This document shows positions 54,109 to 55,979 of a DNA stretch of 56,043 bases, piece by piece; the stretch's first letter is position 1; the number at the start of each line of letters is the position of its first letter. Source of the stretch: Patescibacteria group bacterium (GTDB lineage Bacteria; Patescibacteriota; Minisyncoccia; Phycocordibacterales; Phycocordibacteraceae). The position numbers and the translations under genes are program-made. Below the pieces are notes generated by a model. That model searched no databases and was not told the origin of the DNA. It worked only from the letters and a program-made list of their open reading frames with translations. The stretch covers positions 1-56,043 of the forward strand of contig JAGWVF010000008.1 in NCBI GenBank assembly GCA_018971045.1, read 5' to 3'.

Positions 54109-55758
54109 TCAAATCCTAGCATTTTCGGGCTCAAATGCTAGAATCGCTGAATACGGAGAGGTGGCTGAGTGGTCGAAAGCGCTTGACTCGAAATCAAGTG
54201 TGCTCGAAAGGGTACCGTGGGTTCGAATCCCACCCTCTCCGCAGAAAGAAACTTCTGAATCCGAAAGGTGGGAAGAAGCCCGCGCCGAAGGCGCGGGTGT
54301 GAGCAAAAGAGCCCGTCGCTCCGCGACGAATTGGGACGGAATGGGCAGGGCGAACTGGGCGGATTTGTCACGAACCAAGGGGTTCGTTCCGATTTTTTGG
54401 ACGAAGGAGGCAATTTCTCTGAAATTGTCGGATGAGGACAAAAAATCGGCTTGTTTCATATCTAAAATCCATTCCCGTAAGGGTTCGACCCAATTTTTTC
54501 TTCCGCGTTCAAAATCTTTCATTTTCTCTTTCAAAGCGGCGAGAGAGCGCATGAGAGTATCTTTTCGTTTGAGATACATTTCCTTTGGCACATCGCCATC
54601 GAGATAAGTAGAAACCAATTTTTCCATGCGCTCCTCGTTTACTTTGATACCATCGGAAAGATTTTGAACCTCGCTTTGCGACGCAGAAGTTTCCTCGCGC
54701 TCCCACATTTTCACCTTGTCCAACATCCAACTTGTATAGCGATCGCAAAGCGAGATTGTTTGAAGCCGTGCACAGATTTGTCGAGAAAGTTCACTTTCCT
54801 GCACATACGCTTGCGAACAGTGGCCGCGCTTTTTCGAGCACCGATAATACCGATAGCGACGACCAGATTTTCCTGTTGCCCACTGCGCGGAAATCATACT
54901 GCCACATTCGGCGCATCGAAAAAGTCCAGTGAAAGGAAAATCATGCTTGATTTTCCTTTTGCGCGGCCTTTCTTTCGTTTGCAATACTTTCTGCACGGCT
55001 TCAAACAATGCGAGAGAAATAATTGGCTCAAAGTTTCCATCAAACCATTCCTGCCCATGCTTCACGAAACCAAGATATGCCCGATGAGTAAGAAGCCGTT
55101 TGATGGAAACTTTGGCAAGTGGCGTTTGGTGTTTCGTCACTACGCCCAAGTCCGCCAAAAATTGAGCGAGAGAAATGAAAGTATGCGAACCTTTGGCGTA
55201 TTCCTCATATGCTAATTTCACCACGCGAGCATTTGTCGGATGAGGCTCAATATTGCGAATACGCGGATTGTTTTGATAGCCAAAGGGAGCTAAATTCAAC
55301 CACTCGCCTCGTCTCAATTTTTGGCGGACACCTCGCTTGATATTGTCGGATAAATTATCTGAATAATATTTGCTCTGCCCAAACGCCACTTGCAACATAA
55401 AGAGCCCTTGCGGGGTCGGTTCAAACCAAAATGTCGGAAAGCGCAAAGACACAACCTTGCGAGTGTCTACGGCGTAAATTACTCGTCCACCGTCAATACT
55501 GTTACGCGCGATGCGGTCGGGATGCCACGCCAATATGCCGACACCATCTAATTTTTCAACTTTTGACATCATGTCGCCGAACACCTCGCGCCCCGGTGTC
55601 TTTGCGCTTTTCGACTCTTGAAATTCCTCAAGAATTTCAAGATTTTCTTTACGCGCCAATTCTCGCAACTCAAAAAGCTGTGCCTCAATGGACATCACTT
55701 GTCGGTCATCATCTTCGGTGCTCTTGCGAGCGTAAAGAAAATATTTTGGTTTGGACAT
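54109..55758 (-). CDS. Large serine recombinase (catalytic, recombinase, zinc-ribbon and coiled-coil domains)
   Basis: YARKSTE catalytic Ser, DRIARN, PFGY, CAECG...YYRC...C zinc ribbon; start ATG 55758; the last 43 codons run antisense through tRNA-Ser and its promoter. Confidence 0.93.
   Translation of the reverse strand: MSKPKYFLYARKSTEDDDRQVMSIEAQLFELRELARKENLEILEEFQESKSAKTPGREVFGDMMSKVEKLDGVGILAWHPDRIARNSIDGGRVIYAVDTRKVVSLRFPTFWFEPTPQGLFMLQVAFGQSKYYSDNLSDNIKRGVRQKLRRGEWLNLAPFGYQNNPRIRNIEPHPTNARVVKLAYEEYAKGSHTFISLAQFLADLGVVTKHQTPLAKVSIKRLLTHRAYLGFVKHGQEWFDGNFEPIISLALFEAVQKVLQTKERPRKRKIKHDFPFTGLFRCAECGSMISAQWATGKSGRRYRYYRCSKKRGHCSQAYVQESELSRQICARLQTISLCDRYTSWMLDKVKMWEREETSASQSEVQNLSDGIKVNEERMEKLVSTYLDGDVPKEMYLKRKDTLMRSLAALKEKMKDFERGRKNWVEPLREWILDMKQADFLSSSDNFREIASFVQKIGTNPLVRDKSAQFALPIPSQFVAERRALLLTPAPSARASSHLSDSEVSFCGEGGIRTHGTLSSTLDFESSAFDHSATSPYSAILAFEPENARI
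54116..54144. promoter_or_regulatory. Back-to-back extended -10 promoters for the divergent tRNAs
   Basis: Inverted repeat CTAGCATTT-N8-AAATGCTAG gives TGCTAGAAT toward tRNA-Ser and TGCTAGGAT toward tRNA-Glu. Confidence 0.6.
54155..54241 (+). tRNA. tRNA-Ser(CGA)
   Basis: GGAGAGG/CCTCTCC acceptor, CTTGA-CTCGAAA-TCAAG, long variable arm; no encoded CCA. Confidence 0.95.
54239..54369 (+). repeat. 131-bp inverted repeat, left copy
   Basis: CCGCAGAAAGAAAC...GGCGGATTTGTC is the exact reverse complement of 55785-55915 by manual comparison. Confidence 0.95.
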
Positions 55759-55784
55759 ATATTTGCTTTTAGATTGAAACAAGA

Positions 55785-55915
55785 GACAAATCCGCCCAGT
55801 TCGCCCTGCCCATTCCGTCCCAATTCGTCGCGGAGCGACGGGCTCTTTTGCTCACACCCGCGCCTTCGGCGCGGGCTTCTTCCCACCTTTCGGATTCAGA
55901 AGTTTCTTTCTGCGG
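55785..55915 (-). repeat. 131-bp inverted repeat, right copy
   Basis: GACAAATCCGCC...GTTTCTTTCTGCGG; starts 26 bp upstream of the recombinase ATG. Confidence 0.95.
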
Positions 55916-55979
55916 TGATGTATTAGCCTTTGCGCGAACTCACTTTGCACGCGCGGAGCGCGTCGTGGCTTTGAATTGA
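55785..55979 (+). other. Silent alternative recombinase C-terminus (no start codon of its own)
   Basis: Reads DKSAQF...SEVSFC (identical to the recombinase) then GDVLAFARTHFARAERVVALN*. Confidence 0.7.

Follow-up and report, generated by a model that had tools for sequence, protein, structure and literature searches.

An apparently undescribed family of Patescibacteria integrative elements in which a large serine recombinase gene lies between inverted copies of its own 3' end

The recombinase locus

The window analysed here is the whole of contig C6 (JAGWVF010000008.1, 56,043 bp), one of the nine contigs of the 742.5-kb Patescibacteria genome G000 (GCA_018971045.1), of which C3 is another. 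Near the right end of C6, the gene for a large serine recombinase (LSR) lies between two inverted copies of its own 3' end and points into the 3' end of a tRNA-Ser(CGA) gene. The arms of this inverted repeat (IR1) are called R and R', and the recombinase segment between them U; the arms of a second inverted repeat (IR2), which begins at the contig end, are called B and B', and the cargo segment that they enclose Z. Attachment (att)-like sites at the segment borders are numbered s1 to s3, and tRNA genes were called with ARAGORN throughout. The features of the locus are the following.

54026-54100, minus strand: tRNA-Glu(UUC), the divergent partner of tRNA-Ser
54109-55758, minus strand: LSR open reading frame (ORF), 549 aa as assembled, with PF00239, PF07508 and PF13408; PHROG integrase
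54155-54242, plus strand: tRNA-Ser(CGA); the left, attL-like junction s1 takes its chromosomal (B-type) half from the 3' end of this gene
54236-54244, no strand assigned: core of site s1 (..CCGCAG on the plus strand), which recurs at 55910-55918 and at C3 76760-76768
54239-54369, plus strand: IR1 arm R, whose minus strand codes for the final ~43 conserved-frame residues of the enzyme; the 'r' half-site, with GAAGTTTC on the minus strand, occupies the outer ~25 nt
54312-54330, minus strand: terminator-like hairpin in arm R, mirrored at 55824-55842 (plus strand), both pointing outward from U; from a consensus scan only
54370-55784, minus strand: unique segment U, 1415 nt, comprising the recombinase body and a 26-nt leader (55759-55784)
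55785-55915, plus strand: IR1 arm R', a spare 3' end of the gene in inverted copy, immediately upstream of the recombinase
55910-55979, plus strand: internal site s2 (R'/B, attP-type), which contains the 'b' half-site motif ..TTTGCGCGAAC.. and the conserved alternative tail GDVLAFARTHFARAERVVALN (stop at 55977-55979)
55916-56043, plus strand: first 128 nt of IR2 arm B, interrupted by the contig end; the full 215-nt arm is at C3:76769-76983

The 549-aa frame, read on the minus strand from an ATG at 55758, is the sole long ORF between the arms, and its start is backed by the consensus N-terminus of the homologues, MxKPKYFLYARKST. The GC content across U is ~46%, against ~57% for the host. Pfam places a resolvase domain (PF00239, E 2.8e-20) at residues 7-153 and additionally identifies a recombinase domain (PF07508, E 4.8e-13) and a recombinase zinc ribbon (Zn_ribbon_recom, PF13408, E 1.2e-10); within the YARKS motif, Y9, R11, K12 and S13 show no variation across 53 aligned sequences. 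The protein matches the SPbeta and A118 integrase chains, with ~22% identity to SPbeta SprA/YokA and to the A118 integrase. Judged from these sequence features, the enzyme is a bona fide LSR. It is neither a small serine invertase with a C-terminal helix-turn-helix (HTH), being an LSR of more than 505 aa with a zinc ribbon, nor the product of an IS607-type serine transposon (N-terminal HTH, no terminal inverted repeats), given its LSR domain order and the long inverted repeats.

Residues 1 to ~505 are conserved in the family, while residues ~506-549 (54109-54243) are tRNA-antisense read-through: the ORF crosses the left arm in ~43 codons, continues through antisense tRNA-Ser(CGA) and stops at 54109. 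An AlphaFold2 (AF2) model has a mean predicted local distance difference test score (pLDDT) of 68, with a poorly modelled catalytic domain, and was used only for its low confidence from residue 489 onward. It contains long helices at 339-386 and 392-419 (pLDDT mostly >80) and a confident C-terminal subdomain at 424-484, and falls below 50 at residues 489-495 and 503-549. A scan for sigma-70-like promoters returned three sites against 2.0 expected, none of them upstream of the gene, and is uninformative for promoters of the Candidate Phyla Radiation (CPR).

A sequence-only reading of this DNA had described the recombinase as the only gene between perfect 131-bp inverted repeats, the repeat as encoding 43 of its residues and the protein as ending in a tRNA-antisense tail. 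The repeat search, the ORF list and the path of the frame through arm and tRNA bear out all three statements.

The inverted repeat in the genome and its relatives

The repeat search recovers inverted arms at 54236-54369 and 55785-55918, 134 nt long, 99% complementary and 1415 nt apart, of which 131 nt (54239-54369 and 55785-55915) are perfect. The runner-up within 52000-56043 is an inverted repeat of 29 nt at 72%, and IR1 is far beyond chance.

Relatives were drawn from two sources. Protein homologues numbered 3509 at E ≤ 0.001 among 8000 scored candidates, and the best 120 of these, 67-94% identical to the recombinase and, where named, nearly all labelled Patescibacteria, were used for the C-terminus classes described below. 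A scan of species-representative genomes confirmed at least 418 loci, the best 80 of which were fetched and are the relatives compared here (labels beginning with L denote loci, those with G genomes). A scan of viral contigs with the recombinase found no relative.

Contig ends cut 15 of the 80 loci, leaving 65 in which IR1 could be assessed, and the repeat was found in 65/65, all from other Patescibacteria genomes. The layout is the same in these relatives: one arm stops ~25-30 nt before the start codon and the other forms the 3' end of the ORF. Arm lengths range from 110 to 155 nt, and arm identity among the 69 loci with a detected IR1 ranges from 74 to 100%, with identical arms in 17/69, at least 97% identity in 35/69 (the 17 included), 90-97% in 23/69 and less than 90% in 11/69. 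The arms have diverged in some relatives and therefore are not assembler-made. Within a locus, the median arm identity is 97.1%, compared with 80% for the best match between loci, and the closest arm of all is the locus's own partner in 51/64 loci. The arms of G000 differ by ~7% from those of the same-genus genome G036, whereas the own pairs are 99-100% alike in each genome. Such concerted evolution depends on recombination between arms, in which crossovers invert U.

Both inner junctions of the cassette are recovered outside the G000 assembly, in Logan contigs (short k) that represent the sequencing runs X1, X4, X9 and X10. The junction 55784/55785 is bridged by X1 record 6 and X4 record 22, both of which extend 30 nt into the arm; for 54369/54370, a bridge of the same 30 nt comes from X1 record 3 and X4 record 20. 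X1 and X4 belong to two studies; X1 may be the source sample, and the 131-nt arm is a separate unitig in it. Support for the 55784/55785 junction from sequencing runs and recurrence of the inverted layout in homologues, two points that the sequence-only reading had named for checking, both speak for a genuine structure. Per-contig depth in X1 (R, 23.2; B, 26; U, 10.8-12; flank, 12.7) fits two copies per arm but was not used as evidence, depth not being copy number. The figures for X9 and X10 were identical and were counted as one, and the bin 55754-55855, which lacks cover there, is not treated as a finding.

The end of contig C6 also finds an explanation in the repeats. Contig-end overlaps of 138-144 nt in G000 suggest an assembler k of ~141, which exceeds the 131-nt arm but not the next repeat and would explain why C6 ends where it does. 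Similarly, 28/80 relative contigs end 41-557 nt upstream of the recombinase gene. Elsewhere in the genome, exact 138-144-nt overlaps join other contig ends (C1/C2/C7, C6 start/C7 and C4/C5) with internal places in C7 or with each other, marking other assembly-breaking repeats.

A larger element across two contigs

The structure continues on C3. The last 125 nt of the window are 100% identical to C3:76769-76893, and directly before 76769 C3 carries a look-alike of the arm end (18/20 nt matching). The last 96 nt of C3 (78806-78901) are the reverse complement of C3:76888-76983, and B is therefore the start of IR2, with arms of 215 nt. IR2 encloses the 1822-nt Z, in which an HTH_3 regulator, a Peptidase_S51 protein and one ORF without a family match are encoded. 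The whole element reads tRNA-Ser / R (131) - U (1415) - R' (131) / B (215) - Z (1822) - B' (215) / flank, for a calculated length of 3929 bp. IR1 and IR2 are shown to be the two halves of one long inverted duplication of an attP-type junction, one copy of which has been split by integration. A stand-alone recombinase cassette was rejected on the grounds that IR2 and the cargo continue on C3.

Beyond the element, C3 encodes a PG_binding_1 protein, a DUF2127 protein, tRNA-Val and TrmH. In same-genus genomes tRNA-Val and TrmH adjoin the DedA/tRNA-Ser/tRNA-Glu locus, and the ends of C6 and C3 are therefore neighbours. By synteny, three of these genomes (G007, G046 and G049) have the locus with no element between DedA and the tRNAs, while G036 carries the same element between tRNA-Ser and DedA within a single 175-kb contig, with an IR1 of 134 nt at 99.25% and an IR2 of 245 nt at 100%. 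Related genomes therefore hold occupied and empty versions of the locus, with short cores shared among the sites, as is characteristic of integrative elements. Together with the tRNA and tmRNA (transfer-messenger RNA) ends found at the ORF ends of relatives (see below), these findings uphold the earlier suggestion of a tRNA-targeting mobile element. The qualifier 'minimal' that came with it does not hold, as the recombinase cassette is one module of a ~3.9-kb element with a second inverted repeat around cargo.

Upstream sequence extends for 2 kb or more in 38 loci; in 17 of these an IR2 of at least 100 nt, the cut-off used, abuts IR1 and encloses 1.1-5.2 kb. A DNA search with the left flank from C3 in 30 relatives gave no match except the genome itself, and a search of the C3 end (L087, including B and Z) against Rfam found only a tRNA.

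Several further observations concern the element and its surroundings. The recombinase (54250-55758) is 90% identical to that of G036, while the neighbouring host DedA gene (53305-53952) is only 69% identical; from this difference, the element appears to have moved between species of the genus recently. Arm B holds a 24-nt imperfect palindrome around a C-rich loop (L087 2381-2404 / 2451-2474), which starts at about window 56031, runs into C3 and is also present in the G036 arm. A hairpin motif of ~47-56 nt, terminator-like with a GC-rich stem and runs of T and A, recurs at 84-98% identity inside the otherwise unrelated cargo of many elements (L087 2789-2834, which is C3:77288-77333; L090 3872-3918; L067, in three copies; L082, L041, L014, L009, L015 and L125).

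G000 also encodes five other LSRs of a second family, with frames of 440-480 aa (C7:61966-63294, C7:147472-148917, C4:2-1276, C3:49920-51332 and C9:12110-13471). None of the five (0/5) has a flanking inverted repeat. A second-family relative in G035 is ~32% identical to the recombinase studied here, and 3/5 of the paralogues converge on a tRNA 3' end 100-440 nt away.

Attachment-like sites and tRNA targets

Three att-like sites delimit the modules: s1 (tRNA/R), s2 (R'/B, internal and inverted) and s3 (B'/flank). Topologically, s1 and s3 run in the same direction, opposite to s2. Only a core of 3-7 nt (for example TGCGG, TGTGA or GTGG) is common to all three in 18 loci, and this crossover core sits within the last codons of the recombinase ORF.

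The sequence beyond the ORF end could be classified in the 71 loci with at least 60 nt of flank. It is an antisense tRNA or tmRNA in 58/71, with 10 tRNA types represented: tRNA-Glu in 21 loci, tRNA-Ser in 14, tRNA-Ala in nine, tRNA-Gly and tRNA-Arg in three each, tRNA-Leu and tmRNA in two each, and tRNA-Lys, tRNA-Ile, tRNA-Pro and one labelled 'Stop' in a single locus each. The other 13 comprise six with a tRNA listed at the ORF end, three tmRNA-like ends, one tRNA cut by a contig end, two decayed tRNA ends and one locus (L012) with a second B-type arm.

The flanks also share a short motif. Measured from the divergence point, a GAAC(C/T) starts at 14 nt in the tRNA flank, where it belongs to the T-arm, and, in 29/41 scored loci, at 20 nt in the B flank, within ..TTTGCGCGAAC..; the loose regular expression used for scoring at times took an earlier GAAT, and such cases were fixed by eye. 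According to PMC11722253, the motif read by DNA-binding domain 2 (DBD2) lies 4-5 bp further out in attP half-sites than in attB half-sites. The 6-nt outward shift of GAAC resembles this published shift and, by analogy, GAAC might be the DBD2 motif of these enzymes, which appear to read the T-arm/acceptor end of the tRNA.

A rearrangement involving the same sites is apparent in the vicinity. Relative to DedA and to tRNA-Val/TrmH, the tRNA-Glu/tRNA-Ser pair (53953-54242) is inverted in G000 as compared with five same-genus genomes (G007, G046, G049, G036 and G035; L125-L129). The endpoints of this inversion are both tRNA 3' ends, which are the target sites of the element, suggesting a recombinase-mediated rearrangement.

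Orientation of the cassette and the alternative C-terminus

In only one of the 80 relatives is the cassette flipped. In L068 the order is tRNA-Glu / R - leader - gene, with the gene co-directional behind the tRNA; the assembled orientation is reliable here because the arms are only ~75% alike. In all other loci with a readable flank the gene points into the tRNA, including 17/17 with identical arms. Where the arms are less than 97% alike and orientation is unambiguous, a tRNA lies at the ORF end in 28/33, and the other five have a tRNA or tRNA-like end in the same orientation. The cargo is similarly constrained. In eight of the nine elements that have an HTH gene this gene adjoins the internal site, and in L085 it lies one gene away; it is divergent from the recombinase and never at the far end, so the orientation of the cargo is fixed. 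These counts are taken across relatives: Logan contigs end at the arms and do not show which way U or Z lies within a sample.

These counts exclude balanced or frequent flipping. A frequently flipping ON/OFF switch is not supported, and the flip switch proposed in the sequence-only reading is supported only in part. Coexistence of both orientations, which characterises invertons, is not seen across the relatives, with 1/80 flipped. Rare inversion of U is possible.

The conserved part of the homologue C-termini extends up to ..LSxxEVSxCG, beyond which the sequences diverge. A rough classification by regular expression of the best 120 homologues finds tRNA-antisense tails (GGIRTHG.., GEIRTLE.. 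or PTGNRTP..) in ~62 and ..FART.F.. tails in 10, to which P0075 was added by eye; the remainder are short, other or unclassified. FART-tailed database proteins occur only on contigs of at most 4.6 kb and never on long chromosomal contigs. In the internal inverted copy, the recombinase frame encodes the xILxFARTxFE.. tail in 47/70 entries and reaches a stop in 46/70, with a median of ~15 codons to the stop; the other entries are cut by contig ends or frame-shifted in diverged arms. The sequence-only reading had stated that after inversion the same frame would end in GDVLAFARTHFARAERVVALN, and had suggested looking for ARTxF-type C-termini in homologues; translation of the other arm gives this ending, and tails of this type occur in 10-11 of the 120 best homologues and in 47/70 internal copies. 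A search for the 43-aa alternative-tail ORF among longer proteins retrieved only P0002 and short fragments on contigs of 534-926 nt, with no long contig carrying the same tail, a weak result with few shared words.

In the s2 sequences of 18 loci the Arg codon of FART is always CGA, while the Ala codon varies. Since only CGA is used for Arg, conservation of the tail is at least partly at the DNA level. The low model confidence suggests additionally that the tail may be unstructured.

Interpretation and alternatives

The structure is probably the recombinase module of a Patescibacteria-specific integrative element of ~3.9 kb, inserted at the 3' end of tRNA-Ser(CGA). In the mechanism proposed, recombination between s1 and s3 would excise the element, restoring the tRNA/flank junction and releasing a circle whose two R'/B junctions, inverted to each other, would make up a single long inverted repeat centred on the crossover point. 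The gene in the circle would end in the conserved ..FART.F.. tail, and the free-form enzyme carrying this tail would insert the circle into tRNA or tmRNA genes at their T-arm/acceptor end, exchanging the FART tail for tRNA antisense and leaving an intact inverted copy of attP upstream of the gene. Once integrated with its gene facing the tRNA, the element would be in its stable, long-lived and strongly predominant state. The arms would be kept alike by recombination or gene conversion, with occasional inversion of U as a rare side reaction.

A 3923-nt metagenome contig, L090, has the permutation expected of the predicted circle: IR' (399) - U - IR (399) - Z (1709). Its first 399 nt are an inverted copy of 1816-2214, and it starts inside the repeat. 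The contig has no terminal overlap, and no relative bridges its end-to-start join. As a circle, L090 is only suggestive.

Several points weigh against this mechanism. L090 could instead be an assembler walk through a repeat longer than k. Neither an excised circle nor an empty tRNA-Ser/flank junction was seen for this strain, and no recombination directionality factor (RDF) was identified. An IR2 of at least 100 nt is missing from 21/38 loci with at least 2 kb of upstream sequence. At the sites themselves, the flank ('f') half-site varies from locus to locus, and no obvious symmetry relates the r and b halves. Under the canonical rules for LSRs, by which attP recombines with attB, and attL with attR in the presence of an RDF, the internal attP copy has no role. 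Two equivalent attP copies in the circle should moreover allow integration both ways, yet one orientation is seen, and the mechanism needs selection or locking as an extra assumption. Candidate purposes for the inverted copy are isomerisation of the circle as in the yeast 2-micron plasmid, exchange of modules, and an operator between the divergent HTH and recombinase genes. That it serves as a spare 3' end from which inversion restores the gene is a doubtful proposition.

The same idea can be extended to a self-resetting integrase switch. A very large family of mini-elements would have placed its LSR in its own invertible cassette, inversion would restore the switched-off integrase behind a tRNA promoter, the modules would be units of cassette exchange, and the enzyme would recognise the universal tRNA T-arm. 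This synthesis can be put forward only tentatively.

Rather unlikely is a self-inverting ON/OFF switch, in which inversion of U, by the recombinase or by RecA at the 131-bp arms, is a designed function and assemblies have mostly caught the OFF state. A crippled form with a tRNA-antisense tail, converging on the tRNA, would alternate with a full-length, FART-tailed form driven from the tRNA side, and the ON state would lead to excision and movement. Conservation of the spare 3' end in frame, with its stop ~15 codons past the core in 46/70 entries, is as expected for such a switch, as is homogenisation of the arms, which implies recombination between them. Arms of 110-155 nt are far longer than an att site requires, the assembled orientation lacks a sigma-70-like promoter upstream of the gene (in a weak scan), and in L068, whose arms have diverged, the flipped layout behind tRNA-Glu has become fixed. 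The strong orientation bias itself could follow from an absorbing OFF state. Against this stand the one-sided orientation (1/80 flipped, and all 17 identical-arm loci facing the tRNA), the fixed cargo and the confinement of FART-tailed database proteins to contigs of at most 4.6 kb. The alternative tail could just as well be the end of the protein made from the excised (attP) form; its predicted disorder, with pLDDT below 50 from residue 503, leaves a functional difference between the tails unproven, and its conservation may be that of a DNA half-site, to judge from the exclusive use of CGA.

In a further alternative, R-U-R' and B-Z-B' are modular cassettes exchanged by double site-specific crossovers, and the inverted repeats exist for this exchange. 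The elements of G000, L090, L092 and G036, in which U, R and B are 85-93% identical and Z is largely different, are compatible with this, as are L012, with B-type arms and cargo on both sides of U, and L015, a chain of abutting segments bounded by repeats. In one X4 contig, likewise, R' leads at window 55916 into another B-type flank (..ACAAAGTTCGAATG). No exchange event was seen directly, however, cargo turnover can result from ordinary recombination, and the arm length of 110-430 nt is left unexplained, making this alternative improbable.

That the structure is an assembly or amplification artefact, namely a fold-back chimera as its position at a contig end and its perfect repeat might suggest and as the earlier caveat allowed, is so improbable that it was rejected: the same layout occurs in 65/65 assessable relatives from independent assemblies, arms of 74-95% identity included, the G036 element lies inside a 175-kb contig, runs of two studies provide junction-bridging contigs, and the inferred k of ~141 is longer than the 131-nt arm.

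Two side observations relate to the composite loci. The X4 flank ACAAAGTTCGAATG resembles the second arm after the recombinase in L012 (7506-7739). L015 contains at least five abutting segments bounded by inverted repeats, with two more segments of ~1.4-1.6 kb that have 120-nt arms, as if elements had piled up in tandem next to a truncated remnant of a tRNA.

Comparison with known systems

The family is real and conserved, apparently undescribed, and apparently one of LSR integrative elements. A literature search found no description of it; catalogues of LSRs (for example PMC10083194) could hold members. With at least 418 loci and more than 10 kinds of tRNA/tmRNA targets in Patescibacteria, the architecture is conserved and not a curiosity of one contig. 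Its crossover within the integrase ORF, internal inverted attP and two abutting pairs of inverted repeats are not predicted by the textbook scheme of attP x attB recombination. The elements account for a recurrent contig break in metagenome-assembled genomes (MAGs) of Patescibacteria (28/80 contigs), and the inverted tRNA pair of G000 points to recombinase-driven rearrangement at tRNA loci. The enzymes are candidate integrases with a near-universal natural landing site and offer a test case for control of LSR directionality by C-terminus and site geometry.

The closest enzymes are the large serine integrases of phages and integrative and conjugative elements (ICEs), such as SPbeta SprA/YokA and A118/LI. 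The domain order is the same (catalytic, recombinase, zinc ribbon with long coiled-coil helices), and the common core is likewise short; if GAAC is indeed the DBD2 motif, its outward displacement in the element-side half-site, relative to the host-side one, would be a further parallel. The present enzymes differ in their low identity (~22%), in the crossover within their own ORF, in the second, inverted attP-type junction and in the targeting of many tRNAs as well as tmRNA. The elements, in turn, are only ~2.5-7 kb and carry no phage or conjugation genes.

In the 'suicidal' integrases of SSV-type archaeal elements (PMC7253208), the recombination site lies within the integrase gene and integration into a tRNA alters the product. 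The attP inside the integrase ORF is common to both systems; here, a serine recombinase exchanges only its last ~20 codons. SSV-type integrases, in contrast, are tyrosine recombinases whose gene is split in two, and they are not known to have an inverted spare copy. A C-terminus changed by integration is also found in mycobacteriophages BPs and Brujita, in which attP lies in the repressor gene and integration alters how the repressor behaves, giving integration-dependent immunity. Their integrase is a tyrosine recombinase and they are not known to have an inverted duplicate, whereas in the present family the gene altered is that of the integrase itself and an inverted duplicate is present.

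Inversion systems provide the remaining parallels. In P1 Cin, Mu Gin and the R64 shufflon the crossover sites are at the outer ends of the inverted repeats (P1 arms are ~0.6 kb) and inversion swaps a C-terminus. The invertases, small serine enzymes for Cin and Gin and a tyrosine enzyme for the shufflon, are encoded outside the invertible segment, and both orientations coexist in populations. In the present elements an LSR is encoded inside its own segment and one orientation dominates. The yeast 2-micron plasmid has two unique segments parted by a long inverted repeat with the FLP target in mid-arm; Flp is a tyrosine recombinase, the plasmid is non-integrating, and flipping between its isomers is shown. 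The predicted circle of the Patescibacteria element would have the same two-segment layout, for which isomer flipping is not shown. The present family unites an LSR with a tRNA target, a crossover inside the ORF and an internal attP copy in inverted orientation; none of SSV, P1 Cin and 2-micron is known to combine all four.

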